Source: Patescibacteria group bacterium (GTDB lineage Archaea; Nanobdellota; Nanobdellia; Pacearchaeales; GW2011-AR1). From it: a stretch of DNA of 64,000 nt. Shown here piece by piece: positions 46,141 through 63,705 of this stretch. Each line of letters begins with the position of its first letter. The first letter of the stretch is position 1. Under the pieces are notes generated by a model. That model was not told where the DNA came from, ran no database searches, and saw only the letters and a program-made list of their open reading frames with translations. A program made the position numbers and the translations under genes. The stretch covers positions 116,363-180,362 of the forward strand of contig JAHYJW010000001.1 of NCBI GenBank assembly GCA_019428815.1, read 5' to 3'.

Positions 46141-47082
46141 TTAGATTTTTAGAGATTCCTCTTTTTTTATTTCTTCGTAAGCAGAATGTGCAGCTATTGC
46201 GCCTTCACCACAAGCAGTTATAACCTGTTTTAAGGGATTATCTGTTATATCTCCTGCGGCATAAAATCCTTTGATATTTGTTTCTTGTTTTTTATTAACC
46301 TTAATATACCCGTTTTCCATTTCCACTTTTAATTGTTGGGGTATTTCTTCATTAGGAATAGACCCAATTTCAATGAAGACTCCATCAACTGCTAATGTTT
46401 TTTCATTATCCAGAGTCATTTCTTCAACTTTCTCTTTTCCGTTAATTTTTATTACATTTGAATTAAAGAGAACCTTTATTTTTTTGTTCTTTTTGACTAA
46501 CTCAATCCAACTTGGCTCTGCTCTAAAAAAACTATCTTTTCTAGAAATTATAACAACCTCTTTAGCATATTCTGAGAGTAATAATGCAGAAGTTAAAGCA
46601 GCATCACTCCCGCCTATAACTGCAACAACTTTATCTTTAAAGAACCCAGAATCACAAGTAGCACAGTAACTAACCCCTTTCCCTAAGAACTCTTCTTCGC
46701 CAGGGATATCTAATTTTCTTTTTTTTGTTCCTATTGCTAATATTACCTTTTTTGTTTTATATGTTTCTTTATTCCCTTTAATTAAAAAAATTTCCTCGCT
46801 TTTGCTTATCTCTTTTACGCTTTCTTGTTTAATAACTCCCCCAAGTTCTTTAACATGGCTTATTAATTTTTGAGTTAATTCGAAACCTGAAATGTTGTTC
46901 TGAGTAGGGAAATTACAAATTTTATGAGACTCAGAAATCATTCCCCCCTCAATTTCTCCTAGAACAAGAGTTTTAAGAAGATATCTTTCTGCATAGATTG
47001 CAGCAGTCAATCCTGCAGGACCTGTTCCAATTATTATTAAGTCGTATGTAACTTCTTCGGGTTTATCGGGTTTACTTTCCAT
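46141..47082 (-). CDS. trxB: Thioredoxin reductase
   Basis: YDLIIIGTGPAGLTAAIYAER, redox CATC, second Rossmann VAVIGGSDAA, GDITD. Confidence 0.85.
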   Translation of the reverse strand: MESKPDKPEEVTYDLIIIGTGPAGLTAAIYAERYLLKTLVLGEIEGGMISESHKICNFPTQNNISGFELTQKLISHVKELGGVIKQESVKEISKSEEIFLIKGNKETYKTKKVILAIGTKKRKLDIPGEEEFLGKGVSYCATCDSGFFKDKVVAVIGGSDAALTSALLLSEYAKEVVIISRKDSFFRAEPSWIELVKKNKKIKVLFNSNVIKINGKEKVEEMTLDNEKTLAVDGVFIEIGSIPNEEIPQQLKVEMENGYIKVNKKQETNIKGFYAAGDITDNPLKQVITACGEGAIAAHSAYEEIKKEESLKI

Positions 47083-48541: not shown

Positions 48542-49450
48542 TTAATCTAAGTAGAACTTTTCATAATCCTCAATATCATTACCAATATGATTTACTAAAA
48601 GGATTGATTTTCCTTCTTTTGTTGCTAATTCTTGAGCAAGTTTCTGATAAGTCCGTCCAATATGTGTCACATCATTTTTTCCGCAATACGCTTCCATAGT
48701 CATAGGTTTTGTAGGTGTTATTAAATCATTATACCTATTTCCTCTTCCAGTCATGCCTGCATCCCCCTGTTCAAGACTTGTTCCTGTAACAGTATTAAAA
48801 CAAGTTTTTTCATTGTCACCTGTATTTATAAAAATATTCTCATTTTCGTACTTTTTTCTTAAACTAATCTCAAAACTTTTTTTTAGTTCATCATACCTTC
48901 TTCTTGTTTCACATATTAATGCTAATGCAATAAATATTTTCCCATTTATGTACATTACTTTATGATCTGTTCCTATTTCTTTAGAATCTAATGCTTCTTT
49001 TTCTAAAAAATGTGATATCTCTAAAACTTTCTTTTCTGCTTCTGTGTATGGGTGTCCTACAGAAAAACTAGTATCATTACAAAGATTTTTGTTAAAATTA
49101 TCACTCAAATCAGGACTTCCTTCTGCTATGTGATTAAAAACTTCATATTTTAATCCTCTGTTTATCTCTATTTCTAAAACTTCATTAACTGTTTTTTTTA
49201 ATAAGTCTTCTATTTCTTCTGTTTTTGTTGCGTTTCCACTAAAAACTATTTTTACTGGACTTATCATTTCTTTTTTATCATAATCCACTTTTCCACAGCT
49301 TGCTAATACCTTATCAACATTGTAATGTTGTATTTTTCCGTATTCTTTAAGGTACTGATTTTTTAGTTTTTTTCCTAAAACTTCCGCGAGATTATCAGCT
49401 ATTGTATCAGGATGCCCTCTTCCCTTTCTTTCTATTATTTCACTTGTCAT
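48542..49450 (-). CDS. Archaeal-type S-adenosylmethionine synthetase (short form)
   Basis: ERKGRGHPDTIADNLAE, HYNVDK, GTSLEQGDAGMTGRGNRYNDLITPTKPMTMEAYCGKN. Confidence 0.75.
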   Translation of the reverse strand: MTSEIIERKGRGHPDTIADNLAEVLGKKLKNQYLKEYGKIQHYNVDKVLASCGKVDYDKKEMISPVKIVFSGNATKTEEIEDLLKKTVNEVLEIEINRGLKYEVFNHIAEGSPDLSDNFNKNLCNDTSFSVGHPYTEAEKKVLEISHFLEKEALDSKEIGTDHKVMYINGKIFIALALICETRRRYDELKKSFEISLRKKYENENIFINTGDNEKTCFNTVTGTSLEQGDAGMTGRGNRYNDLITPTKPMTMEAYCGKNDVTHIGRTYQKLAQELATKEGKSILLVNHIGNDIEDYEKFYLD

Positions 49451-50363: not shown

Positions 50364-51428
50364 TTATAACCACCTTTTTTTCTTAAAATAAACAATCATA
50401 GCCCCTGCAACTAAAAACATTAAACCTAAAACAGCAAAATAACCAAAAGACCAGCTTAGTTCTGGCATGAAACTAAAGTTCATACCATAAATTCCTGCGA
50501 TAAATGTAAGGGGGATAAATATTGTTGCAATTATAGTTAAGACTTTCATAACTTCATTCATTCTGTTACTTGTATTGGATAAATATAAATCAAGCATACC
50601 TGATAATAGGTCTCTAGCTGTTTCTACAATGTCAATTATTTGTATTGTATGGTCATATAAATCTTCTAAATACGGGAGCGTCTTCTTTTTTATTAATGAG
50701 GATTCAGATTTTTTCAATTTATTAATAGAGTCCCTAAAAGGCCAAATCGCTTTTCTTAAAAATAATACCTCCCTTTTTAGACCATAGATTTCGTTTAAGA
50801 TATTTGATTTTTGTTCAAATAAAAGAGATTTTTCAAAAATTTCAATTTTTTCACCAATTTCTTCTAAAATCATAAAATAATAATCAGTTATGATATCCAT
50901 AATAGCATAAGTAAGATAATCTGGGCCCCTATCTCTTATTCTTCCCACCCTTTTTTTGATTCTTTCAATTAAAGGATCAAACACATTACTTGGACCTTCA
51001 TCAAGAGAAATAACGAAATCCTTACCTAATATCAAACTAACTTGATTTGAGATTATCTTGGATTTATTTTCTTCGAAATTAAGCATTTTTAATACAATAA
51101 AAATGTAATCATCAAAGATTTCTATTTTTGGCCTTTGATCTGTATTTAACGCATCCTCTAAGATTAAAGGGTGAATTTTACAGTATTCCCCAATTTTGTT
51201 AATAATCTCTGTTTCATGAAGTCCCTCAACATTTAACCAAGTGATTTCTGGAGATTTTTTAAACGGGAAAGCTTCTGTGATGTCTTTCAAGTTTTTTTCT
51301 TCAACTTTCTCTTGATTATAACTGATAACAGAAATTTGAACTCTTGGGGTTTTTTTAGTTCCAACAAAAACAAGACTTCCGGGGGATAAACCCTTTTTTT
51401 GAGATCTTTTCTTTATTAATCTTGACAT
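50364..51428 (-). CDS. corA: CorA-type Mg2+/Co2+ transporter
   Basis: YGMNF signature between two C-terminal TM helices. 354 aa. Confidence 0.85.
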   Translation of the reverse strand: MSRLIKKRSQKKGLSPGSLVFVGTKKTPRVQISVISYNQEKVEEKNLKDITEAFPFKKSPEITWLNVEGLHETEIINKIGEYCKIHPLILEDALNTDQRPKIEIFDDYIFIVLKMLNFEENKSKIISNQVSLILGKDFVISLDEGPSNVFDPLIERIKKRVGRIRDRGPDYLTYAIMDIITDYYFMILEEIGEKIEIFEKSLLFEQKSNILNEIYGLKREVLFLRKAIWPFRDSINKLKKSESSLIKKKTLPYLEDLYDHTIQIIDIVETARDLLSGMLDLYLSNTSNRMNEVMKVLTIIATIFIPLTFIAGIYGMNFSFMPELSWSFGYFAVLGLMFLVAGAMIVYFKKKRWL

Positions 51429-51475: not shown

Positions 51476-52483
51476 TCAAAATAAAAACAAATTCCAATAA
51501 TTGGAGATAATTTCATTAACACAAAATTCAACTAATTCTCTATATTCTTTTACATTAGTAGAACTTAAATCAGACTTATCTGCAGTTTGCATAGTATCAA
51601 GATAGTCTTCCCTAAACTTCTTTTGAATTATAATTGGGGGATGCTTATCTTTCATTAAGATATAATTCATAATCATCCTTCCAGTTCTTCCATTTCCATC
51701 TGCAAAAGGATGAATCTTCTCAAACTTATGGTGAAAAAGAGTTGCTAAAACAAGAGGATCTAGTTTAGATTTATTTTCTTTATACCATTTAAGTAAAAGT
51801 TCCATATCTGTTTTAAGATATTGAACAGGGCTAGCATCAAAATTACTTTTGAAAACCTTTATTTCCATATTTCTTAATCCCTTTCTTTTATCTATATTTT
51901 CTAAAAGAGAATCGTGGATTTTTATAATAAAATTTAAAGATAATTCTTCTTTAAACTTTTTATCATACAACTCAAAAAAGACTCTTTTAGTGTTCTGTAA
52001 ATCATAGATCTCTCTAAGTGTCTTGTCTTTTGGAGTTTTACCCTCTTCTAAAAGGTTTTTTGCTTCCTTCAAAGTTATTGTATTGCCTTCTATAGATGTT
52101 GTGTTGAACGCAAATTCAATTAAAAAATTATTCAAGATTTCTCTTTTTGTTAATTCATCTAATTTAAGAAAACTATCAAAAAAATGAATTTTACAAGCTT
52201 CTAATTCTAATTGCTTTTTTCCTAAAAACTCATCTTTTTTTAATTTTTTTTTCTTTGCTTTTTCAAGATGGTAATTAGAATCTAAGAAGACTTTGAGTGT
52301 GTGATAAGCTTTCCTAATTTCTTTTTCGTGTGAACTAAGGTTGTCTAAATTTTCTTCAACTTTTTTCAAGTTATCTCCCAGATAAGCAATATCTTTTACT
52401 ACAACTTTTTTACCTTCACGTTTTGAAGCTCTTAAGTAATAATATTCTTTATTTCCAACTTTCTTTTTGTATATGTAAACCAT
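51476..52483 (-). CDS. Fic family protein (class II, N-terminal inhibitory motif)
   Basis: Fic motif HPFADGNGRTGR and upstream TTSIEGN ((S/T)xxxE(G/N)). N-terminus is paralogous to the 54074-54997 protein. Confidence 0.85.
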   Translation of the reverse strand: MVYIYKKKVGNKEYYYLRASKREGKKVVVKDIAYLGDNLKKVEENLDNLSSHEKEIRKAYHTLKVFLDSNYHLEKAKKKKLKKDEFLGKKQLELEACKIHFFDSFLKLDELTKREILNNFLIEFAFNTTSIEGNTITLKEAKNLLEEGKTPKDKTLREIYDLQNTKRVFFELYDKKFKEELSLNFIIKIHDSLLENIDKRKGLRNMEIKVFKSNFDASPVQYLKTDMELLLKWYKENKSKLDPLVLATLFHHKFEKIHPFADGNGRTGRMIMNYILMKDKHPPIIIQKKFREDYLDTMQTADKSDLSSTNVKEYRELVEFCVNEIISNYWNLFLF

Positions 52484-52694
52484 AAAAGATATAGAAAAAT
52501 AAACTATTTAAACTTTACCCCTTACATTTTTATTTTAGATTGTAGAGGGTATGCACCCCGATCGAATCTCTGACCCTCTGGACATCTTGGAGAAGTGTGG
52601 TTTTTTACTATGGTTTGTTGTTGGTGGCTTTTGTTTATAAGAATGGTCGAGATTAGGTGTACAGATATTTATTTTGCTGATGAAGAAATTAATT

Positions 52695-53018
52695 TTATGT
52701 AAACTTAAACAACTTTTCATAATCCTTATGATTCATCCAATCAAGAACTATTGCTAAAACATCAATTTCATCTCTTCCGATAGAGTAAAGTAATCGCCAA
52801 TCTTTTCTTAAATTATAAATCCACAGATTATTAATTTTATATCTTTGTATCAGTTCTTTAGGAATTAATTTCTTTTTTACGTTTCTCCCACAAAAGGCAT
52901 TTTTACAAATGTCGTTTAATGCTTTTGTTATTTCCTTATATAGCCTTTCATTACGATCTTTGAGATTATCAAAGGTCTCTTTTAATTTTAAGTCGAAAAA
53001 ATTTATTTTGCATTCCAT
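52695..53018 (-). CDS. RelE/ParE-superfamily toxin-like protein
   Basis: 107 aa. NLWIYNLRKDWRLLYSIGRDEIDVLAIVLDWMNHKDY. Confidence 0.5.
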   Translation of the reverse strand: MECKINFFDLKLKETFDNLKDRNERLYKEITKALNDICKNAFCGRNVKKKLIPKELIQRYKINNLWIYNLRKDWRLLYSIGRDEIDVLAIVLDWMNHKDYEKLFKFT

Positions 53019-53308
53019 TCTAACTCTTTTTTGTTTCTGTATTTTTTAACTAATTCTGGATTCCAGATATAAACAACATGCCCCTTATTATCATATGCAA
53101 TTTTTCCAATGTTTTCTAAATACTCCATAATCACTTGAAATGTTTGCCACATCACCTTTTTAGGAAGATTGTTAAACAAATCTGTTTTTTTATATTCTCC
53201 AGAATTTTCATCTATGAATTTCTCAACCATTAAAACTGTTTGAAGTGTTGGGCTTCTTGCTACATTATTTAATTCAGAATAATTTTTTTTAATTGTTGTA
53301 AATTCCAT
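53003..53308 (-). CDS. Putative cognate antitoxin / small winged-helix-like protein
   Basis: 101 aa. Lies upstream of the toxin-like ORF and overlaps it by 16 nt. Confidence 0.35.
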   Translation of the reverse strand: MEFTTIKKNYSELNNVARSPTLQTVLMVEKFIDENSGEYKKTDLFNNLPKKVMWQTFQVIMEYLENIGKIAYDNKGHVVYIWNPELVKKYRNKKELEWNAK

Positions 53309-53527
53309 TTTATTATAATATCAATTGATATTACTATTTAAATCTTTTGGATGTTAGAACATTTAGATTAAATAAATATGCTTTTGATTGTGAGGCGCTT
53401 TTACTTGCAGGGAATAATGCAGCGGGAAAGTATTCTATTAAATATTATAATGGTAAATTTAACGCTTACCAAAGAACCTATGTTCTAACGTTAAAAAATA
53501 AGGAAGATAATTTTAGATATTTTCATT

Positions 53528-54070
53528 TTATTTTTTAGTTCCATTATGTACTAATCCCTCTCTAAAAGGAGTTAAATCTTCTTTTTCAATATATTGTTTA
53601 AAACAAGAAGGATCTTCGAAAAACAAATTTCCTTTTTTAGCATATGTAACCGCGCGACAACACCTATAATAAGGTTTATGTTCACAATTGGTTTCCAATT
53701 TATTAAAACCTCTTAAATTATTCATTGTTTGATTTTCCGTTATTAATTTAACTAATCCTTCTGAGATATGTCCAATTATAAACTGTTCCGTCCGCAAGAA
53801 TTGCAACACCTGTAAATCCTGCAGAACACCCTCCAGAATAAAAATTATTCTCTCTAGCAAACCTCTTTTGTACACTATCTGTCCTCATTAAGTGCCACAT
53901 AACCTCTGTTTGTAGAACAACAATTTTTTTATGCTTTCTATCTAATTCTCTGGCTTCTTTAAATGAATCATAAGTGTTTTTTGGGTTAACAAATTCTGCA
54001 TCATTTGGTCCTGAAGGAACATAGATTTGAAACCCAAAAAAACTTGCTATTCTGGAAAGGTGCCCACAAA
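53528..54070 (-). pseudogene. Decayed radical-SAM/SPASM-type gene remnant (C-terminal part, multiple frame breaks)
   Basis: One frame reads ...FYSGGCSAGFTGVAILADGTVY then stops. The adjacent frame (the ORF 53528-53875) continues IIGHISEGLVKL...NCEHKPYYRCCRAVTYAKKG...EDPSC. Together they resemble C-x-x-G...DG-x-V-Y...iG-n-i plus a degenerate CX2CX5CX3C. A TAG interrupts the upstream frame near 53942. Confidence 0.4.
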
Positions 54071-54073
54071 TTC

Positions 54074-54997
54074 TTATTTTTTATTTTTTGTAGCCACCTT
54101 TTTTATAGTCTTTTTATATTGCTTCAAAAGAAAGTCTAATGTGGGCTTTAGATTGTCTTTCTTTGAATATTCTTGCAAGGTTCTATAATATTCTTGCCTA
54201 TCTTCTAAAAGAATGTTTATTGGAGGGTATTTTCTCTTTAGTAAGATAAAGTTTAATAGTAACCTTCCAACCCTTCCGTTTCCATCTTGGAAAGGATGAA
54301 TATCCTCAAATTGATTATGAACTATTGCCGACAAAACTAAAGGAGCAAACCTATTCTTGTTTTCTTTATACCACTCAATAAACTCTTTTAGTGCGATCTC
54401 CAAATGTTCTACTGGGGCTCCTGAATGAATTATTTCTCCTTTAGAGTTTTTTATAACTACATTAACATTTCTAAATCTACCTGCATAACTTTTAGAGTTT
54501 TCAAAACAAAGCTTATGCAGTTTCAATAATAAGTCCAAAGAAAGGTCTTCTTTGGTTTCTTTAATGTATTCTATAGCCTTGGCTACTCCTTTGGTTTCAA
54601 TTTCTTCTTCATTTTCGGCTCTTGGTTTTTTAAGAATTTCTGAGACTTCATTCTCTTGAATTGTAGAACCTTCAATAGCATTAGTATTAAAAACAAAATC
54701 TTCCTTAAAATTCTGCCATTCTTTATTTGTTAAATGAAACACTTGTATCCTTTCTTGATATTTATTGAGTCTCTCTAATTGTTTTTTTGTAAGCCTAAAA
54801 GAAAAAATGTTTATACTTCTTTGGTTTAACTCTTCTAAGATTTCCTTTTCTCTTTCTTTGGATTTTTGTTCTAATTCTTTTTGGGATAGATTTGAACCAA
54901 GATACTTTCTTATTTTTTCAACTTTGTCTCCTTCTCTGTAAGAATGAACTAAATAATATTTTATACTTTTGCCAACTTTTCTTTTTTCTACATACAT
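54074..54997 (-). CDS. Fic family protein (class II)
   Basis: HPFQDGNGRVGR and TNAIEGS inhibitory motif. Confidence 0.85.
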   Translation of the reverse strand: MYVEKRKVGKSIKYYLVHSYREGDKVEKIRKYLGSNLSQKELEQKSKEREKEILEELNQRSINIFSFRLTKKQLERLNKYQERIQVFHLTNKEWQNFKEDFVFNTNAIEGSTIQENEVSEILKKPRAENEEEIETKGVAKAIEYIKETKEDLSLDLLLKLHKLCFENSKSYAGRFRNVNVVIKNSKGEIIHSGAPVEHLEIALKEFIEWYKENKNRFAPLVLSAIVHNQFEDIHPFQDGNGRVGRLLLNFILLKRKYPPINILLEDRQEYYRTLQEYSKKDNLKPTLDFLLKQYKKTIKKVATKNKK

Positions 54998-55298
54998 AAT
55001 ATAACAAAGGTGCCTACATTTTTAAATCTTTTTAATTTTGTGGTCACCTTAAAGAATTACAATTTTTCTATTTCTTTCAAAATTTCCTCAGAAGAAAATT
55101 CCGAGTGTCCATCTTAGCCATGTTTCCATAATTTTACAAAGAAAGAAGTATCTTTGTTTATTTCTAAGATTTCTGAGTCTTCTTTCAATAATCCTATCTG
55201 TCTTTCGTATTGTCTTTTGTAATTGTGTATATCCATACCCTCGATAAAATCGCAGTAGTTTTTATACCGCGATTAAAGGCGTTGAACTTTTATAAGAC

Positions 55299-55385
55299 GC
55301 CCCGAGCGGGCAAGGGGCTATCGTGGCACTTTAGAGGGTTTTCATTAATTATAATGATTTTTTTTGATGAAGAGGATTTTTAAAG
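55299..55385 (+). repeat. GC-rich repeat element, copy A
   Basis: gccccgagcgggcaaggggctatcgtggcactttagagggttttcattaattataatgattttttttgatgaagagg... aligns with 62801-62887 at roughly 75-80% identity by eye. Confidence 0.6.
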
Positions 55386-55451
55386 ATAATCAGAAGGACT
55401 TATTTATGCTATAATTAACAAAAATTATGATTTTTTTGTAAAAATAGTTAA

Positions 55452-55462
55452 TTTTATAAATA
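55452..55462 (+). promoter_or_regulatory. TATA-box-like element ttttataaata, about 25 nt upstream of the ATG at 55482
   Basis: The position and sequence fit an archaeal TATA box with a very short leader. Confidence 0.4.
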
Positions 55463-55481
55463 AGGAAATACTTTCTTTTTT

Positions 55482-56636
55482 ATGCCTACAAAATATGATG
55501 TATTTGCTGAAATTTTTGAAAAAGCACCTTGCAAACCAAAGGATCTTGAATTTAAAACTCCTATCTATGCACAGGTAAACTCTCTTATTAGCCAGGGATG
55601 GGTTAAAAAAACAAAACAAGGAATTTTAAATCCTATAAAAAATAAAGAAACTGAATTTATATTTAGTATTCTTAAATGGTCTTTAAAAAATAATCTTAAT
55701 TATAACTTTTGGTTTTCTGAAAATCTTCCAAATATTTTAAGAGTCTTGTCAAAATCAATACCCAAAATAAATCCCAAAGCATTATCTAATAATAAAAAAA
55801 AGCAAGAAATTGTTAATTTTTTTGAGGATAATCAATTTTTAGTCTTATGGAAAAGAAAACCTAAACTTGGAACTTTGTTAAATCACTCTTTATTTGATTT
55901 AATTATGGAAAAAAAAGGTATTAAAGAAAAGATAAACGAAAAATATCTTTCTTATATTGAAATTAATAAAGAAATATTAAAAATTTCTAAGAAAGAAATT
56001 AATCCTTTTGATATAAAAATATTTGAATTTTTAGCAGGTTCAGCGCAATTGGAAGGAAGCACAGTAAGTATTGGAGAAACAGTTGATTTAATTTTAAAAT
56101 CAATTTATCCAGATAAACCAAATGAAGATATTCAAATGGTTAAGAATCTTAACGAATCTTTGCATTTTATAATTGACAATTTAGATAAAGATTTGACTAT
56201 TGATAGTTTAAAAGAAATAAACAAAAGGTGTCTTTTTTCATTGCATAAAGGGGCTGGAGAGTTTAAGAAAACACAAAATAAAATTCTTGGAAATCCTAAT
56301 TTTAAAACTACCTCTCCAGAAAAAGTTGTTAATGAACTTGAAAAATTCTGTGAAGGATTTAACAAAATCAAAACAAGAGAAGAATGTCTTAAACAATTAG
56401 GATTTATTCATAATCAGCATCAGAGAATACACCCCTTTGTTGATGGAAATAGTAGAACGACTAGATTTTTAGTAAATTGGTTGTTAATGAAATTTAAATT
56501 TCCTTTATTAATTATTAAACCTGGAGCATTTGAAAAATATATGAGTCTAACAAAATTATCAACTAGAAGAGACGATGATAACTTAAGAGATTTTTTACTT
56601 CACTTAATTTTGCATGAAGAATTAGTAAATAGATAA
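55482..56636 (+). CDS. Fic family protein (class II) with an N-terminal winged-helix-like domain
   Basis: HPFVDGNSRTTR and SAQLEGS inhibitory motif. Paralogous in layout to the 61328-62569 protein. Confidence 0.85.
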   Translation: MPTKYDVFAEIFEKAPCKPKDLEFKTPIYAQVNSLISQGWVKKTKQGILNPIKNKETEFIFSILKWSLKNNLNYNFWFSENLPNILRVLSKSIPKINPKALSNNKKKQEIVNFFEDNQFLVLWKRKPKLGTLLNHSLFDLIMEKKGIKEKINEKYLSYIEINKEILKISKKEINPFDIKIFEFLAGSAQLEGSTVSIGETVDLILKSIYPDKPNEDIQMVKNLNESLHFIIDNLDKDLTIDSLKEINKRCLFSLHKGAGEFKKTQNKILGNPNFKTTSPEKVVNELEKFCEGFNKIKTREECLKQLGFIHNQHQRIHPFVDGNSRTTRFLVNWLLMKFKFPLLIIKPGAFEKYMSLTKLSTRRDDDNLRDFLLHLILHEELVNR

Positions 56637-56640
56637 ACTC

Positions 56641-56690
56641 CCTTTAAGGTGCCAAAAGTGTAAAACACCCTAACTCGGGGCATATCAGAA
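56641..56690 (-). repeat. GC-rich repeat element, diverged inverted copy C
   Basis: ccctttaaggtgcca...ctcggggcatat matches the reverse complements of copy A (ccctctaaagtgcca...ctcggggcg) and copy B (...ccggggcataat). Confidence 0.45.
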
Positions 56691-56757
56691 TGAACTAGGG
56701 TTTCAGATATTTTCTACGATTAGAATAATTTCTTCCTATAATTTTTCTTTTTTTGGA

Positions 56758-57363
56758 CTAATTCCAAAGAGGTCTTTTAAGAGAAGTTTTATTTAATTTC
56801 TTTCCAAGCTTATCTTTTAAGTTAGACAAGTCTTCTTCAGTAGTACAGACAAAACTAAAGTTGTCCTGTTCGGAACAAAGTTTTTCATATCCAGATATTT
56901 TTTCTTTCATTACGTTAGCATATTTTTCCTCATTCCTCCCAAAATGTTCTATAATTATAGTTTCATTTCCATCGTTTATAACAAAATCTGGATGGTAGCA
57001 GTGCCCGTCAAAATTCATTTCTTCTTCATATAATGGGTGTAGTTTGTTTTGAACCAAAAAAAGATATATTATGACTTCTGATTTAGATTTAAAAGGTATT
57101 TGATTAAAGTAGTATTTTCCTTTATATTTTTCTCTAAACTCTTCTTCTTTTTTATTTTCTACAAATTTTATTTGCTTAATCTTTTTTTCTTCTTGTTGCC
57201 TTTCAAGCCAATGGATCTTACAGAGATTATGTCCCTCTTGAACTTCAGCACCACAAACTTCACATTTTGGCTTTTGTTTTTCTTTTTGAGAACATTCCCA
57301 ACAATAATTAAACCAGGGTTTCTTTTGATTTCCGCACTTTGGGCATATATTTTTATTAACCAT
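56758..57363 (-). CDS. Double zinc-ribbon protein with a PD-(D/E)xK-nuclease-like C-terminal domain (tentative)
   Basis: CPKCGN...CWEC and CEVCGA...CKIH. C-terminal SKSEVIIYLFL...YHPDFVI...IIIEHFG resembles restriction-endonuclease-fold modules. Confidence 0.4.
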   Translation of the reverse strand: MVNKNICPKCGNQKKPWFNYCWECSQKEKQKPKCEVCGAEVQEGHNLCKIHWLERQQEEKKIKQIKFVENKKEEEFREKYKGKYYFNQIPFKSKSEVIIYLFLVQNKLHPLYEEEMNFDGHCYHPDFVINDGNETIIIEHFGRNEEKYANVMKEKISGYEKLCSEQDNFSFVCTTEEDLSNLKDKLGKKLNKTSLKRPLWN

Positions 57364-57511
57364 AATTAAACTCTAATTTTTCCCGTTTATAGAATTAAAC
57401 AGAAAAATAGCTTTATATAATTAATCAAAGAACCATCTAAAAAAGAGGAAGAAAACTATCTTTTTTGTATTAATAGTGCTGAAAATTGAAGATATTTTCT
57501 ATAATAGAAAT

Positions 57512-57521
57512 CCTTTTAAAC
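57512..57521 (+). promoter_or_regulatory. TATA-like element ccttttaaac, about 25 nt upstream of the precursor ATG
   Basis: Same spacing as the other candidate promoters in this window. Confidence 0.3.
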
Positions 57522-57541
57522 TTTTGAGTACTTAGGATTTT

Positions 57542-57739
57542 ATGGTAGAAGATTCAAAACTTGAAAGTGTGAAAATTGAAGATCTTGAGGGTATATGTGT
57601 TTCAGGTAAAAGCCTAGGGGACGATAAAGAATATGTGACTTCTGAGGATATCTACAGAGCCCTAAGTTCGCCTAAAGATTCGTTAAATTGTGCTTGGGGA
57701 AGATGTGTTTGGGGTCAATGTAATTATTCCCGAAAATAA
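57542..57739 (+). CDS. Candidate precursor peptide (acidic leader plus Cys/Trp-rich C-terminal core)
   Basis: 65 aa ending in ...SPKDSLNCAWGRCVWGQCNYSRK. Lies 28 nt upstream of two radical-SAM/SPASM genes. Confidence 0.6.
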   Translation: MVEDSKLESVKIEDLEGICVSGKSLGDDKEYVTSEDIYRALSSPKDSLNCAWGRCVWGQCNYSRK

Positions 57740-57742
57740 AAA

Positions 57743-57753
57743 GATTTATTAAC
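57743..57753 (+). promoter_or_regulatory. TATA-like element gatttattaac, about 20 nt upstream of the ATG at 57768
   Basis: Near-identical to gatttattaatt at 62919-62930, which has the same spacing to the ATG at 62950. Confidence 0.3.
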
Positions 57754-57767
57754 ATACCCCCACAAAA

Positions 57768-59003
57768 ATGAAACTAAAAGCACCCCTGAGTACACAAATA
57801 GAGGTGACTTCAAGTTGTAACCATAGCTGTGTCTATTGCTATAATCCTTTTGAACATAAAACAATCTCAATGGATAAATCTCAGTTGCATTATATAATAA
57901 ACGAATTGTGTGATCATGAGGTTTTTTCTTTAATTTTTACTGGGGGTGAACCTTTTATGAACAGAGGTGTTTTAATTAATGGTTTAAGATCCGCTCAAGA
58001 AAAGGGGAGGGATACTTACCTAAATTCGAACCTATCAATTCCTTTAAGAAATGAAGAAATTAATGTCTTAAAAAATGTTAAAAATATACTATTCTCCTTT
58101 CCTTCTTCTAATCCTAAAAAATATTTTCAAATAACAAACCAAGATAGTTTTAAAAATGTTTTAAAGAATTTAGAGAGGCTTGCATCCAATGAAATTACTC
58201 TTACGGCAAACCAGGTGGTCATACCCTTAAATAGAGAAGAAATTTATGAAAATGCGTCGTTTCTTAAGGATCTCTTTGACATAAGGAATTTTTGTGCAAC
58301 CCCAGTAAACCCCTCTGGGTGTCTTAGGGAACAGTATTCTTTATTCCAGGAGGATTATACTAAAATTATTCGGGATTTATTAGAAGTAAAAGATACTCTT
58401 GATATGGAAGTTGGAGTACTTACCTGCTTGCCCCCCTGTCTTTTAGAAGAAGACCTTAGATCAAATAGCCTCATTAATAAGATATGTTCTGCAGGAAAAA
58501 GCTCATCTGCCGTTGGTGTAAATGGAGAAGTTAGAAAATGTGTTGAATGCGATAAATCTTATGGAAACATATTTGAAGAATCTTTTTCTGGAATATGGAA
58601 TAGAATAAATTCAGAACAAACCACCGTTCATGAAATTTGTAAAGACTGCCCTATTAAAATAGGTTGTAGTACTGGTTGTGAAGCAAGAGCGCTTAAAAAT
58701 AAGGGTGTTGATCCATTAATCCAAGGGCCAATACCTTTTTTTTCTCAACCGCCCCCTATAGAGATGAATAACCAATCTTTTTATTTTTTAAAAAGATTTA
58801 ACAGTAGAAATGAAGAAGGGGAACAATACATTATAACAGATGAAGGTTCTTTTCTTCTTTATGGAAACAGGTCTTTAATTAATTTCTTAGAAAAGTTAAA
58901 AGATAAAATATTTACAATTTCTGAAATAAAAACAGAATTGGGAGAAAGGGGCTTAGGGCTTATAAAATATCTCAATTCACAAGGTTTAATTGAAAAAAAA
59001 TGA
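57768..59003 (+). CDS. Radical SAM / SPASM-domain peptide maturase with a C-terminal PqqD(RRE)-like tail
   Basis: C17-x3-C21-x2-C24 (CNHSCVYC), GGEPF, SPASM CSAGKSSSAVGVNGEVRKC...CKDCPIKIGCSTGC (CX2CX5CX3C), and a ~90-aa tail ...YIITDEGSFLLYGNRSLINFLEKLKDKIFTISEIKTELG...YLNSQGLIEKK. Confidence 0.85.
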   Translation: MKLKAPLSTQIEVTSSCNHSCVYCYNPFEHKTISMDKSQLHYIINELCDHEVFSLIFTGGEPFMNRGVLINGLRSAQEKGRDTYLNSNLSIPLRNEEINVLKNVKNILFSFPSSNPKKYFQITNQDSFKNVLKNLERLASNEITLTANQVVIPLNREEIYENASFLKDLFDIRNFCATPVNPSGCLREQYSLFQEDYTKIIRDLLEVKDTLDMEVGVLTCLPPCLLEEDLRSNSLINKICSAGKSSSAVGVNGEVRKCVECDKSYGNIFEESFSGIWNRINSEQTTVHEICKDCPIKIGCSTGCEARALKNKGVDPLIQGPIPFFSQPPPIEMNNQSFYFLKRFNSRNEEGEQYIITDEGSFLLYGNRSLINFLEKLKDKIFTISEIKTELGERGLGLIKYLNSQGLIEKK

Positions 59004-60232
59004 AAAAAATTGAATTATCTCAAAATAAATCTTTTTTAATAAATCCTGAAAATGGTAAATGGGGAATTTCAAGTACTAAAAAAATAGGAGAATTAGAGGA
59101 AAAATTAAGAGACCCTTTACCAAAAAAAGAATATTTAGGAACAAGATTAATTGTCATTAATTCTTCCAACAAATGTAATCTTGATTGTGTTTATTGTTCA
59201 GAAAAAGAACACAGAATGAATTCTGAGGAAATGACATACGAAATTGCAAAGAAAATAGTGGATAGGTCAATCGAAGACCAATATAATCCTGAAATTGTTT
59301 TTCATGGAAGTGAACCAACAAGGAATTTCGATTTTATTAAAAAAGTTATTTTTTATGGGTATGAAAAATCAAGGGAATTAAATAAAAGAATTAGATTTTC
59401 CATTCAGAGCAATTTAGCTGAAATTCCGGAAGATTTTTTAGATTTTATTAAAGAATATAGTGTTGGTGTTTCTACAAGTATCGATGGAACTCGAGAAATT
59501 CATGATAAACTAAGACCTTATAAAGGTCAAGTATCCTCTTTTGAGGACATCTTTTCTAATGCAAAAAGAATCTTGAATCAACAAGGGACTTTGAATGTAG
59601 TTACAGTTATAACTAAGTTTAATGTAAAAATGCTTAATGAAATCTCAGATTTTTTTGAATCTGAAGGAATTACCTCTTGGCAAACAATACCTGTAGAAAA
59701 AAGTCATTTTTATGCTCCAGAACCCCAAATTTTAGGTGAATCCTACACCCAATTTTTTGATAAAATATTCTCAAAAATTGAAGAAAAGAAACAAAGGTTG
59801 GAAATAAAATCTTTAGCTCAATATCTTAGTTCAATTTTTTTTCATAATGGTATAGACTCTTGTAGAATCTGTAGTTCAAGCAATTTTCATCCTTTAATAG
59901 CTATTGACCAGGAAGGAGACGCTTATCCTTGTGATTATTTTTGGGGCGATAAAAAATTTAAAATTGGGAATGTAACTAATCAGTCTCTTAAAGAGATAGT
60001 TGATAATCCTTCAAACTTACGTATGAGAGATATAAACGAAACTAATTGTTCAGTATGTACTTGGAAAATGATTTGTGGGGGAGGTTGTTTAGCGGGAAGT
60101 TATGAGTCTAATAATGAAAAACCGCCCTATTGTTTAACTCATAAAATTGTCTATGATTATCTTTCTAAAAAAATGCCTGAACTAATAGGTAAAGATTTAA
60201 TTAACCCTGTTCTTTCTTGGTTAATAAAATGA
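59000..60232 (+). CDS. Radical SAM / SPASM-domain peptide maturase (second paralog, N-terminal extension)
   Basis: CNLDCVYC at about residue 59, HGSEPT, SPASM CRICSS...DQEGDAYPC...CSVCTWKMICGGGC. ATGA overlap with the upstream gene. Confidence 0.85.
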   Translation: MKKIELSQNKSFLINPENGKWGISSTKKIGELEEKLRDPLPKKEYLGTRLIVINSSNKCNLDCVYCSEKEHRMNSEEMTYEIAKKIVDRSIEDQYNPEIVFHGSEPTRNFDFIKKVIFYGYEKSRELNKRIRFSIQSNLAEIPEDFLDFIKEYSVGVSTSIDGTREIHDKLRPYKGQVSSFEDIFSNAKRILNQQGTLNVVTVITKFNVKMLNEISDFFESEGITSWQTIPVEKSHFYAPEPQILGESYTQFFDKIFSKIEEKKQRLEIKSLAQYLSSIFFHNGIDSCRICSSSNFHPLIAIDQEGDAYPCDYFWGDKKFKIGNVTNQSLKEIVDNPSNLRMRDINETNCSVCTWKMICGGGCLAGSYESNNEKPPYCLTHKIVYDYLSKKMPELIGKDLINPVLSWLIK

Positions 60233-60885
60233 AAACTAAGTTAATAATAAAAAAGAATAAAATTGTTTCGCCAACTATTGGAAAATGTAATGATTACACT
60301 AAGGAGGCTATCTCTAAAATTGAAAAATTTTTTAATAAAAAAATAGATTTTAAGATTATTTTTTTAAAATCAAGAGATGAAATAAATAAAACTTATTCAA
60401 ATTTTTTTGGTAAAGATTATCAAACAGAAAACTGGGTTGTAGGAGGTTTTTTTGGTAAAGATACTGTTTATATTCTCAACGAAGATTCTTTTGATTCTGA
60501 ATCCTGCCATCCCAAAAAAGAATTTTTTCCAACTCTTGTTCATGAAATAACTCATATTTTTATTAAAAAAATCTTTGGATTTCAGTATCCTTTTTGGCTT
60601 AATGAAGGAATTGCATCTGTTGTTGCAGATCAAGATAATATCAATTTAGACAAAAAAGATAACTTACAAAATGCTTATACTCAAGAGGACTGGATTAAAA
60701 AAAATCCTTATTTAACTGCGGGGAAATTTACAAGATTTTTAATAAATGAATATAGTAAAGAAAAGGTCTTTGAGCTTATGAAGAAACTAGATATCCAAGA
60801 AAAAAAAGATTCATTCAAAGAAAAGTTTAAAAAAATCTTTGAAAATGATTTTGATACTATTTGGGAATGTTGGTTTAAAAAATGA
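60229..60885 (+). CDS. HExxH...NEG gluzincin-like (peptidase MA-like) protein, candidate leader peptidase
   Basis: LVHEITHIF...PFWLNEGIASV. The Met at 60229 gives an ATGA overlap with the preceding stop codon. The ORF track starts it at 60217. Confidence 0.55.
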   Translation: MKTKLIIKKNKIVSPTIGKCNDYTKEAISKIEKFFNKKIDFKIIFLKSRDEINKTYSNFFGKDYQTENWVVGGFFGKDTVYILNEDSFDSESCHPKKEFFPTLVHEITHIFIKKIFGFQYPFWLNEGIASVVADQDNINLDKKDNLQNAYTQEDWIKKNPYLTAGKFTRFLINEYSKEKVFELMKKLDIQEKKDSFKEKFKKIFENDFDTIWECWFKK

Positions 60886-61292
60886 AAATAAAATTATATC
60901 ATGGTTCTTCAAGAAAATTAAGAGTATTAAAACCCTCTTTAGCCAAAGGAATAGGGCCCTTTCAAAACCAAAAAGCCATATTTCTTACTAAAGATTTTGA
61001 GCAGGCAGCATTATACTCTATTTCAAAACATTTAAAGGGAAAAACACAGTTTGCTTTACCTCCCAAAAAGCTCATAATTGTAGGAAAATTTAAACTTTCT
61101 AAAGGGTATGTTTATGAGATAGAACTAAATAAAAAAGATGTTTTAAAAGGAGATTTAAAAGATTATGAATTTGCATATTTAAAACCGATTAAAAAGTTTA
61201 AGATTTATGAAATAGATCCTCAAAATTACAAAAAACAGATTATTTTGGTAGGTACCCCCGAAGAAATGACAAGGCTATTAAATCGAAAATAA
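60882..61292 (+). CDS. Hypothetical 136-aa protein translationally coupled to the peptidase-like gene
   Basis: ATGA overlap. LYHGSS...AIFLTKDFEQAALYS...GYVYEIE. No secure family assignment. Confidence 0.45.
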   Translation: MKIKLYHGSSRKLRVLKPSLAKGIGPFQNQKAIFLTKDFEQAALYSISKHLKGKTQFALPPKKLIIVGKFKLSKGYVYEIELNKKDVLKGDLKDYEFAYLKPIKKFKIYEIDPQNYKKQIILVGTPEEMTRLLNRK

Positions 61293-61327
61293 AAATAATA
61301 TAACAAATTAGTTGATATGTATTAATA

Positions 61328-62569
61328 CTATATCAACTTCTCATTGATTTTTTTTAGATTGAATAAGATTGTTTTTTGTAGATTTTCAAAAAGTTGTTTA
61401 TCTTCTCTTTTTTTTGATCCCTTAGTATAGCTGAGATACTCATCTAACAATCCAAATGGAATGTCTAACATTGGGATTCCTTTTGAATGTAATAAGTGGA
61501 ATGTTATTAATCTAGTAGTTCTACTGTTTCCATCTCCAAAAGGATGAATATACTGAAATTGATTATGAAAGTATGCAGAAAAATCAATTATTTCTTTTAT
61601 TGAAGTTTTTTTATTTTTTAGAAATTTGTCATATTTTTCTAATAGCTCTTTAAGAAGATATTTTACTTCTTCTGGCTTTGCTGTTTTAAAATTCGGATTG
61701 TTTTTTATACTAACTGGATAATCTCTTATCATCCCTGCAAATTCTTTTTTATGTTCCATTGCTATTTGATGGTACTCTAAAACTGCTTCTTGTGTTAATG
61801 TTCTTCCTTGTTGGGCATCATTTAGCATCTTGAGAATGGCCTTTTGATAATTTTTAACTTCTTCAATATCTTCATTTCTTAAATCTCTTGGGATTACTTC
61901 TTGTTTTAAAATTTTTATTGTATCTGGGAGGGTTATTGGATTGCCTTCTAAAGAAAGACTATGTTGGACAAAATTAATTTCAAATTCGTTTACTAGTTTT
62001 TCATATCCCTTTTCATTTTGTTTTTTTAATCTTTTGAATAGGATTAATTCTTTTTCTATTTCATCTAGATAATTAATTGAATTTTTTCTTGAGGGTTTTA
62101 TTTTATAATCAAAATAAACTAGGAGATTATTAATTAAAGTATTATCAAAAACTCTTGCCTTTAGTGGTTTTTTAGAACTTATTAAAATCAAACCATATTT
62201 ATCTAAAATTTTTATATATTTTTTAAAGGTTTTAGGATTAACTTTAATATCTTTTTGTTGAAATTCTTCTTTTTTTAAGGATTCGTAAATAAAATCTGCT
62301 AAATTTTTATCTAATAAAAGATTGTAATTGATGTCATTTCGAGTACAATAATAAATTAGCTTGTATAAAAGCTCTGTTTTTTCTGATTTCTTTATTTGAA
62401 ATTCTGAGCCCTTTTTGATTAAAAGATTTTCTTTTACTAAATCGTTTAAAATTCTGTGAATGTTTTTATATTCTGAACTATCTTTGTTAAGAATTCTTGC
62501 TACTTCAATAGGTTTTGTTAGAGACTTATTTTTATAAACAATTTCGAACACATCATTTTTAGTTACCAT
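61328..62569 (-). CDS. Fic family protein (class II) with an N-terminal winged-helix-like domain
   Basis: HPFGDGNSRTTR and SLSLEGN inhibitory motif. Confidence 0.85.
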   Translation of the reverse strand: MVTKNDVFEIVYKNKSLTKPIEVARILNKDSSEYKNIHRILNDLVKENLLIKKGSEFQIKKSEKTELLYKLIYYCTRNDINYNLLLDKNLADFIYESLKKEEFQQKDIKVNPKTFKKYIKILDKYGLILISSKKPLKARVFDNTLINNLLVYFDYKIKPSRKNSINYLDEIEKELILFKRLKKQNEKGYEKLVNEFEINFVQHSLSLEGNPITLPDTIKILKQEVIPRDLRNEDIEEVKNYQKAILKMLNDAQQGRTLTQEAVLEYHQIAMEHKKEFAGMIRDYPVSIKNNPNFKTAKPEEVKYLLKELLEKYDKFLKNKKTSIKEIIDFSAYFHNQFQYIHPFGDGNSRTTRLITFHLLHSKGIPMLDIPFGLLDEYLSYTKGSKKREDKQLFENLQKTILFNLKKINEKLI

Positions 62570-62800
62570 ACTATCCCTATGTTCTAATACTTTATAAATC
62601 TTACTATTTAGTACTATTTATAGAACTTTTATCTATTTTTGGTACTAAATGGCATAATATCTTCGGTTTCAACGCCCAGCTTGTGTGTTGATTTCTTTTA
62701 TAAATTAAATGGAAAAAGATTACATCACTAAACTCTATCCAATAAAACATCTTCGAAAGAAGCAAGAGTAGATCACTTAGAAATTGCATAATAGTATTAT

Positions 62801-62887
62801 GCCCCGGCCGAGCAAGGGGTTCTTGTAGCATATTAGGGGGTTTTTATTAATCATCATGATTTTTTTGTTGATGAAGGTGATTTAAAA
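62801..62887 (+). repeat. GC-rich repeat element, copy B
   Basis: gccccggccgagcaaggggttcttgtagcatattagggggtttttattaatcatcatgatttttttgttgatgaaggtg... is a direct repeat of copy A. Confidence 0.6.
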
Positions 62888-62949: not shown

Positions 62950-63705
62950 ATGGTAAAAGATGAAATTAAAATTGATAAAATTTATAAGTCTGAAACATTT
63001 GATGGATCACAAGAATTTCTTTTCCATGAAAACTCCACCAAGAGACCCTCTTGGGTAAAAGCAAATTTAGATAAAAAAGTCATATTCTTAAAAATAATAT
63101 TCAAAGGGGAAGCCTTTTGGTATAGAAGATATTTCCAAGACTATTTTTTCATATTTGATGCAGTCTCGCAAGATTACAAAAATTATTACAATGAAATTGC
63201 GCAAAATTATGAAAGTTATATACCTCAAAATAAAGTAATGAGAAAAATAATACTGGATTTTTTAGAGGAACTTAAAGTCAATAAAAATTCAAAGATTTTA
63301 GATATTGGAGCAGGCACAGGCATTGTTACTGAAGGAATAGCCCAAGCAGGATATAATGACTTAACACTTCTAGATATTTCAGATAAAGAATTAGAAATCG
63401 CAAAAAACAAACCTATTTTATCAAATGCAAAGTTTCAAACTGTAGATTTAGTTAATGAAGAAATTCTGGGGAAATTCAATGTTGTTTTTGAAACAATGTC
63501 ACTTGATTATTTTAAGGGAGAAAAACTAAAACTAATATTAAGCAAAATTAAAAATTCTTTAGTTAAAAGAGGCAACATTATTATTATAGATCGACACATC
63601 TATCCAGAATTTAATGATTATTTTAAGGAAATTAAAAAAGGTAAGACTGAGCTAGACACTCCTGAAGGGAAATTTGATTATTATTATTTTATTGGCAAGA
63701 ACTAA
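62950..63705 (+). CDS. Class I SAM-dependent methyltransferase
   Basis: Motif I ILDIGAGTGIVTE, LLDIS. Confidence 0.8.
   Translation: MVKDEIKIDKIYKSETFDGSQEFLFHENSTKRPSWVKANLDKKVIFLKIIFKGEAFWYRRYFQDYFFIFDAVSQDYKNYYNEIAQNYESYIPQNKVMRKIILDFLEELKVNKNSKILDIGAGTGIVTEGIAQAGYNDLTLLDISDKELEIAKNKPILSNAKFQTVDLVNEEILGKFNVVFETMSLDYFKGEKLKLILSKIKNSLVKRGNIIIIDRHIYPEFNDYFKEIKKGKTELDTPEGKFDYYYFIGKN

Follow-up and report, generated by a model that had tools for sequence, protein, structure and literature searches.

What are four Fic genes doing side by side in a small archaeal genome? Fic enzymes of bacteria and animals have been studied thoroughly, and in the library searched we found no paper on those of DPANN archaea. 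We analysed a 64,000-nt stretch of a DPANN genome (Woesearchaeota/Nanoarchaeota; 645 kb in 9 contigs, 85% complete), which covers positions 116363-180362 of contig C1 and is called the window here. Towards its end lie four genes, named FicA, FicB, FicC and FicD. A preliminary description had taken their products for auto-inhibited class-II Fic proteins, forming two paralog pairs around an accessory island, and had proposed that they serve defence or addiction or act as effectors against a host cell. On balance, and with moderate confidence, we regard them as single-chain, self-inhibited and probably self-regulated toxin-type AMP-transferases in a variable island of the toxin-antitoxin/defence type, a function that we infer by analogy.

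Results

Four class-II Fic proteins in 11 kb

The open reading frame (ORF) list and Pfam searches placed the four genes as described, within ~11 kb (Table 1). All four matched the Pfam Fic/DOC family PF02661 (FicA 76.6, FicB 74.5, FicC 56.7 and FicD 61.1 bits; gathering cut-off 24), and a regular-expression scan of the proteins, which also gave the motif positions, returned the catalytic and inhibitory motifs exactly as they had been quoted. In class-II Fic proteins the inhibitory helix is located in the same chain, N-terminal to the Fic core (PMC3667792). In each of the four proteins the inhibitory (S/T)xxxE(G/N) motif precedes the catalytic motif of the same chain by 128-138 residues, and it is kept in essentially all of the 360 database relatives examined, 120 of the FicA family and 240 of the FicC/FicD family.

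We modelled FicA and FicD with AF2 (44-51 homologs; pLDDT 93.6 and 92.7, respectively) and took the fold of FicB and FicC from alignments. Both models show the Fic fold, a helical core whose catalytic loop stands at the N-terminus of helix alpha-5. In the models the inhibitory motif stands at the end of a helix, residues 110-131 in FicA and 186-207 in FicD. Foldseek matched both models to many solved Fic structures with probability 1.00, the best being 3cuc, FICD and 4x2d for FicA, and 3cuc and FICD for FicD. By sequence, the nearest solved relatives were FICD, C. elegans Fic-1, BT_2513 and C. difficile Fic. The in-chain motif, its retention in relatives and the match to solved class-II structures together bear out the assignment of all four proteins to class II.

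The catalytic motifs are of two kinds. FicA and FicB match the canonical AMPylating signature HxFx(D/E)GNGRxxR, and GNGR is present in 120/120 FicA-family relatives. FicC and FicD do not match it: they read HPFxDGNSRTTR, where Ser replaces the second Gly and His, Phe, Asp, Asn and both Arg are retained. Because 238 of the 240 FicC/FicD-family relatives carry GNSR, the Ser is a hallmark of this superclade, and not a local mutation. We found no mention of the variant in the literature. The Fic anion nest is formed by backbone amides (PMC3667792), so that activity of FicC and FicD may persist despite the Ser.

The proteins are neither Doc nor SoFic equivalogs. All score below the cut-off of 550 of the NCBIfam SoFic equivalog NF046030 (FicA 46.3, FicB 63.4, FicC 23.8, FicD 40.8 bits). 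Doc toxins of Phd/Doc systems have ~125 residues and the motif HxFx(D/N)(A/G)NKR; the four Fic proteins have 307-413 residues and G or S at the position of the Lys (the Ser of FicC and FicD would fall where Doc has this Lys), and DOC_P1 gave 18.6 against a cut-off of 38.65.

The 645-kb genome has no Fic matches besides these four, and in a placement simulation four random positions fell within 11.1 kb with P ~1.6e-5. The clustering is thus non-random. GC content stays at ~27-30% and does not shift at the island, which ends ~2.7 kb from the end of the 181,602-base contig. Past FicD there are only a methyltransferase gene and an ORF of ~475 aa, whose product looks glycosyltransferase-like.

Table 1. 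Positions of the Fic genes, their neighbours and the direct repeat in the window, followed by comparison loci in relatives (genome and contig given as G:C, locus as L)
Feature	Position	Strand	Description
FicA	51476-52483	-	335 aa, class-II Fic; catalytic HPFADGNGRTGR at 258; inhibitory TTSIEG at 128
FicB	54074-54997	-	307 aa, class-II Fic; catalytic HPFQDGNGRVGR at 234; inhibitory TNAIEG at 105
FicC	55482-56636	+	384 aa, class-II Fic; variant catalytic HPFVDGNSRTTR at 317; inhibitory SAQLEG at 187
FicD	61328-62569	-	413 aa, class-II Fic; variant catalytic HPFGDGNSRTTR at 342; inhibitory SLSLEG at 204
RelE/ParE/YoeB-like toxin candidate	52695-53018	-	107 aa; ParE_toxin 22.4 bits (cut-off 23), YoeB 19.7 (cut-off 27)
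Partner of the RelE-like gene, putative winged-helix antitoxin	53003-53308	-	101 aa; weak TBPIP winged-helix match
Decayed SPASM-domain remnant	53528-54070	-	includes 115-aa GTG ORF, 53528-53875
Zinc-ribbon protein	56758-57363	-	201 aa; N-terminal zinc ribbon; weak Pfam DZR match
Candidate precursor peptide of radical-SAM operon	57542-57739	+	65 aa, Cys-rich; immediately precedes the maturase genes
Two overlapping radical-SAM/SPASM peptide-maturase-type genes	57768-60232	+	411 and 410 aa; Pfam Radical_SAM, Fer4_12, SPASM
HExxH metallopeptidase-like gene with coupled orf136	60217-61292	+	222 aa and 136 aa; weak BSP and Peptidase_MA_2 matches
Direct repeat, copy 1	55298-55380	+	100 nt upstream of FicC; GC-rich hairpin head, AT-rich tail
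Direct repeat, copy 2	62800-62883	+	spacer between divergent FicD and methyltransferase genes
HepT/MntA pair	L029:7680-8593 (G012:C2)		within ~1.5 kb of Fic genes
HepT/MntA pair	L067:4704-5506 (G315:C15)		within ~1.5 kb of Fic genes
Fic cluster	G305:C10		three Fic genes of different subfamilies in 4.5 kb
Fic cluster	G027:C1		three matches in 6.4 kb, one Doc-like
Fic cluster	G315:C15		two Fic genes in 2.4 kb
Fic cluster	G127:C12		three Fic genes in 25 kb

Two architectures, four old subfamilies

The alignment of FicA with FicB spans both proteins entirely (37% identity, E 1e-41 to 1e-46), and FicC aligns with FicD at 28% identity (E 1e-35), whereas matches across the pairs are limited to the Fic core (25-32%). 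In a maximum-likelihood tree of 53 Fic proteins the four fall in four separate, well-supported clades. FicC and FicD together belong to one superclade (100% support), and FicA and FicB to a second, which takes in at least three more short subfamilies. The nearest relatives elsewhere are 89% identical to FicA, 90% to FicC and 81-82% to FicD; for FicB the value is 69% in the tree alignment, 68% by BLASTP (in G003 and G046) and 67% in G315. The tree, and identities of 28-37% within the island as against 69-90% to orthologs elsewhere, exclude local tandem duplication. Thus, of the two paralog pairs proposed before, the pairing by N-terminus is real, as the alignments show, but it did not arise by duplication in this genome: the pairs are ancient and reflect two architectures, and by its sequence each Fic belongs to a different old and widespread DPANN subfamily. 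Named database members of the FicC/FicD superclade are almost all from DPANN archaea. A FicD-like gene of one relative (L024:1792-2796) matches residues 1-217 and 328-412 of FicD only, which suggests an internal deletion; it is convergent to an intact Fic gene of the short type.

A variable island

Comparison with relatives showed that the island is variable, not conserved and syntenic, and the hotspot idea of the preliminary description is not weakened on this point. Nucleotide matches to FicA-, FicB- and FicD-type genes were found in only 2-3 of 41 genus genomes each, on different contigs in different species of the genus, and FicC-type genes were detected in none. At 11 named loci in metagenome-assembled genomes, FicD orthologs stood without the other genes of the island, except for one orf136 homolog (45% identity, in L020). 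The flanks vary as well. The CorA gene on the FicA side (50364-51428) encodes a full-length magnesium transporter (260 bits), was found in 0/40 genus genomes at E<=1e-20 and seems to be accessory in the genus; the methyltransferase gene on the FicD side (62950-63705) was found in 2/40. The last gene of clear genus-wide conservation is at 46141-47082. The Fic genes are clustered as described, but the accessory region reaches beyond them and takes in both flanks.

A related population (L226-L234) carries orthologs of FicD, FicC and FicA at three loci with 77-81% nucleotide identity, whereas its housekeeping genes are only 66-75% identical to those of this genome; the difference fits either stronger constraint on the Fic genes or more recent exchange. 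The flanks of these loci map here to C1:4-8 kb and C9 (FicD), C5:43-47 kb (FicC) and C5:17-18 kb (FicA). For FicC this reveals a clean empty site: the ortholog in the related population (L232) ends ~55 nt upstream of an intron-containing tRNA-Tyr, and the tRNA-Tyr on C5 here has no Fic gene beside it. This tRNA-Tyr(GUA) is split by a long intron (~100 nt at C5:43093-43289, ~230 nt at L232:11218-11520), and ARAGORN did not report the gene. In the same population a FicB-like gene (49%), Maf and the FicA ortholog (77%) follow one another in the order and orientation that FicB and FicA have here.

Two European Nucleotide Archive (ENA) assemblies (L061 and L062) hold an identical FicD-family protein with an identical right flank and two unrelated left flanks, which places the gene exactly at a rearrangement or insertion breakpoint. 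The decay of a SPASM-domain gene inside the island is a further mark of variability. Elsewhere in the window a core block (genes at 17836, 19778, 23449 and 26696) has orthologs that are syntenic in L043 (G017:C2), L034 (G016:C2) and L067 (G315:C15). Behind this block stand FicB-type genes in G017 and G315; the content in G016 is variable and includes a winged-helix antitoxin-like gene. The position may be an insertion hotspot. In the window it holds no Fic gene.

N-terminal modules

The N-terminus of FicA was modelled as a three-stranded beta-meander (residues 2-36), and FicB begins with the same beta-module. The module, at 46-55% identity, also heads MntA nucleotidyltransferases in two relatives (G012 and G315). 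Both of these genes lie directly upstream of a HepT-like RNase gene, and by sequence the two genes in each genome constitute MntA/HepT toxin-antitoxin pairs; both pairs adjoin Fic genes (Table 1). A search of 1.8 billion proteins with the module alone returned mostly proteins of 46-262 aa, which we read from their sequences as fragments of the same family, as well as a few fusions, in which the module precedes an aminoacyl-tRNA-synthetase core, an FtsK-alpha domain or a serine hydrolase. Antitoxins commonly have a DNA-binding head for autoregulation. Since the module heads MntA antitoxins, it may, by analogy, be a putative DNA-binding or regulatory head in FicA and FicB.

The FicD model has a different N-terminus, two helix-helix-helix-beta-hairpin units (residues 1-60 and ~88-140) of winged-helix topology, and members of the FicD family show scattered sub-threshold matches to the Pfam winged-helix families HTH_45, MCM_C, eWH_GTF3C1 and Penicillinase_R. 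We therefore predict tandem winged-helix N-termini for FicC and FicD; they are not proven.

Toxin-antitoxin and defence context

Between FicA and FicB lies a RelE-like toxin candidate that overlaps its 101-aa partner by 16 nt, the partner being co-conserved with it in L030, L036, L044, L045 and L232. The pair is multi-copy across the genus and adjoins Fic genes in two genomes (G006 and G027). Few sequences in the last 20 kb of the window are as widely shared at the nucleotide level (up to 85% in the genus), and some genomes, such as G008 and G004, have several copies, which suggests a mobile toxin-antitoxin module. Around Fic orthologs in relatives we found restriction-modification genes, PD-(D/E)xK and HNH nucleases and a Schlafen/AlbA-domain gene, and Doc-like genes and HepT/MntA pairs likewise adjoin Fic genes there. 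The PADLOC SoFic model matched all four proteins (E 1e-18 to 7e-37), as did PDC-S04. The association of Fic with toxin-antitoxin and defence genes, as seen at the loci compared, is suggestive.

The zinc-ribbon protein encoded next to FicC looks nuclease-like to us from its sequence; its C-terminal domain matches the C-termini of the PADLOC defence candidates PDC-S68 and PDC-S69 (E 6e-13 and 1.4e-11). Between it and FicD is the radical-SAM operon, whose two maturase-type genes have PapB, DynA and sulfatase-maturase types as their best NCBIfam matches, all below the equivalog cut-offs. The small Cys-rich peptide gene ahead of them had no family match in Pfam or NCBIfam. A search of PDB sequences returned no match for the zinc-ribbon protein, the RelE-like gene or orf136. 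The SPASM remnant beside FicB gave a weak tblastn match to residues 314-350 of rSAM2 (E 0.006, in a tiny database), and its frame-shifted translation reads GGCSAGFTGVAILADGTVY, then C..KPYYRCC. A conserved link between FicB and radical-SAM genes was considered and rejected: one relative (G046) has an intact radical-SAM/SPASM gene near its FicB ortholog, without significant similarity to the remnant. The window also encodes an archaeal-type S-adenosylmethionine synthetase (48542-49450); at 302 aa it covers only positions 19-330 of the 395-position Pfam profile, the C-terminal part apparently missing.

Fic genes across the family

Fic matches occur in 26 of the 41 genomes that represent the genus and order (0-5 per genome). 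In a family sample of 151 genomes, about one per genus and ~0.4-1.4 Mb in size, 110 (73%) carry Fic, 41 have none and 19 have at least four, with a maximum of 7 and a mean of 1.6. Clusters of several Fic genes recur (Table 1), and four in 11 kb is the largest seen in the genomes surveyed. The density, which had been called remarkable for a small genome, was thus overstated: the cluster is real but fairly ordinary for the lineage.

Discussion

We favour the reading that the four Fic proteins are self-inhibited toxin-type AMP-transferases. The island would have collected one member each of four old DPANN-wide class-II subfamilies, and each gene would be a module of an N-terminal putative DNA-binding head, an inhibitory helix and a Fic core. 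The glutamate of the inhibitory helix would block productive ATP binding. By analogy with SoFic, CbFic2 and FICD, the resting enzyme would be either inhibited or a deAMPylase. The head may bind DNA, either at the promoter of its own gene or elsewhere. Stress, infection, or altered oligomerisation or DNA contact could be the trigger that relieves the inhibition by the glutamate, and the released enzyme would transfer AMP to a conserved target, plausibly a translation factor, leading to growth arrest.

Several observations weigh against this reading. We infer the enzymatic activity, target, trigger and defence role by analogy, and the Ser in place of the second Gly makes AMP transfer by FicC and FicD less certain. 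A profile search of the PDB returned nothing for the N-terminal region of FicD outside the Fic core, and the isolated N-terminal domains had no PDB or significant Pfam match, so that DNA binding by either type of N-terminal domain, as modelled, is unproven. The winged-helix-like N-terminus that had been described for FicC and FicD is accordingly upheld by predicted topology and weak family matches, and not by a fold match of the isolated domain. The PADLOC matches reflect the shared Fic domain, all four proteins being below the SoFic equivalog cut-off. Most Fic orthologs are solo, not clustered, and in close relatives they stand among housekeeping genes (Suf/NifU, Maf, ribosomal proteins). Finally, in the FicA, FicC and FicD families the best 120 clusters each are still at least 48-60% identical over the full length, and such conservation suits a conserved cellular role as well as defence. 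What speaks for a role in defence or addiction is context, and these housekeeping neighbours contradict it in part.

The main rival is that the four are housekeeping regulatory (de)AMPylases. In the way that FICD acts on BiP, they would mainly take AMP off chaperones or translation factors, or attach it reversibly, and so tune proteostasis in a reduced cell, and their co-location with toxin-antitoxin genes would be incidental. We consider this possible but less likely than the toxin-type reading. Besides the strong full-length conservation and the Suf/NifU, Maf and ribosomal neighbours of the orthologs, it would account for FICD and Fic-1 being the closest solved relatives by sequence and fold, for an inhibitory glutamate kept in essentially all relatives and for at least one Fic gene in 73% of the family genomes. 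It is harder to reconcile with the patchiness of the subfamilies in the genus (by nucleotide match), with the lack of Fic genes in 41/151 family genomes, with loci that are polymorphic for presence and absence and not conserved in synteny, and with the recurrence of Fic beside Doc, HepT/MntA and RelE-like modules.

A further idea, rather unlikely in our estimate, is that the FicC/FicD superclade is a distinct Fic lineage, whose Ser may alter the chemistry (the nucleotide or the transferred group) or tie activity to DNA binding, and that multi-Fic islands might be networks of interacting Fic proteins and not sets of independent genes.

The 83-nt direct repeat raises the question of whether the ~7.5 kb from FicC to FicD are carried by a cassette that is, or once was, mobile, with the Fic genes as passengers or addiction modules. 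Between its two copies, the only ones in the genome, lie FicC and FicD with the nuclease-like gene and the radical-SAM operon. In addition, the FicC ortholog of the related population abuts a tRNA-Tyr, a classical integration site, and the Fic genes are closer to that population than are the flanking housekeeping genes (77-81% versus 66-75%). The copies are, however, only 80% identical, and as both are upstream of plus-strand genes they are as likely to be duplicated promoter regions as cassette ends. In 200 genomes of the order the repeat gave chance-level AT-rich matches only, Pfam searches detected neither an integrase nor a transposase in the island, and no gene of these kinds or for replication within the FicC-FicD segment or close to it, and the gene content of the segment is common to no ortholog locus. 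We therefore consider a cassette distinctly unlikely. Tests of the island for tRNA fragments as att remnants gave only chance-level matches, and the repeat had no Rfam match at gathering score or E<=1. In the best of the tRNA matches, exactly at the repeat boundary, the first 14 nt of copy 1 (55297-55310, minus strand) agree with the 3' end of tRNA-Glu(UUC) at 13/14 positions (E 0.85, chance level). A virus-borne origin was rejected: Fic genes in IMG/VR are many and generic, all at most 37% identical over the best segment, with no close relative in the FicA or FicD subfamily.

Delivery of the Fic proteins as effectors into the host cell of an episymbiotic archaeon, as had also been suggested, found no support here and is highly unlikely: Fic effectors are known in host-associated bacteria (CbFic2; PMC10628234) and DPANN archaea are mostly symbionts, but none of the four N-termini reads as a signal peptide or transmembrane segment, Pfam searches found no secretion-system neighbours, the N-termini are folded winged-helix-like or beta-sheet modules resembling DNA-binding modules, and the beta-module is common to the intracellular antitoxin MntA.

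The toxin-type reading has its nearest mechanistic precedents in two bacterial proteins. SoFic of Shewanella oneidensis (SO_4266), a single-gene anti-phage system, acts by abortive infection and is paired with a small antitoxin (PMC12249575); it AMPylates EF-Tu and binds its own promoter (10.64898/2026.07.09.737422). It is likewise a class-II protein, whose chain carries the glutamate on an N-terminal helix and is fused to a winged-helix DNA-binding domain. Its winged helix is C-terminal, however, whereas the DNA-binding-like domains here are N-terminal and Fic_N was not detected; sequence matches to SoFic structures cover part of the core only, a small downstream antitoxin (AS1-like) is not evident here, and the host is an archaeon. 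CbFic2 of Coxiella burnetii, a bifunctional class-II enzyme, is switched by DNA binding through a helix-turn-helix (HTH) domain and offers a precedent for DNA gating (PMC10628234), although its HTH domain is C-terminal and the protein is a secreted bacterial effector that acts on host histone H3.

For several Fic genes together the closest precedent is Campylobacter fetus subsp. venerealis, where four Fic proteins, encoded on islands, work as a network of toxin-antitoxin modules; an inhibitory helix within the chain and cross-neutralisation between Fic proteins keep them in check (PMC5651007). There, in a bacterium, the set includes class-I-type pairs with separate antitoxins, and one Fic is degenerate; all four proteins here have intact motifs and in-chain inhibitors. 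Sequence and fold searches both placed FICD/HYPE and C. elegans Fic-1 closest to the core with its inhibitory helix, and regulation probably follows the glutamate-dependent switching of FICD from AMPylation to deAMPylation and back. Identity is ~20-22%, the N-terminal domains differ, and no TPR or membrane anchor was detected here. The highest target-normalised TM-scores were those of BT_2513 (3cuc) and C. difficile Fic (4x2c/d/e), at 0.72-0.84 for FicA and 0.72-0.75 for FicD; these are compact bacterial proteins of largely unknown function, without a beta-module or tandem winged-helix-like domains.

Both the enzyme class and this kind of variable island are familiar. The four Fic proteins are variants that have yet to be characterised, and the locus illustrates well, without standing out, a gene type and a genomic setting that were known before. 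What it adds is that Fic is common in one DPANN family, with several conserved subfamilies and unstudied N-terminal modules, and that the Fic genes of this family tend to gather with toxin-antitoxin genes in variable stretches. The main interest lies in the invariant Ser-variant clade and in the N-terminal module shared with MntA antitoxins. If it is true that either the Ser-variant clade or the beta-module gates activity through DNA binding, regulation of the SoFic/CbFic2 type would extend to archaea, and the same finding would yield compact single-gene toxin modules for study.

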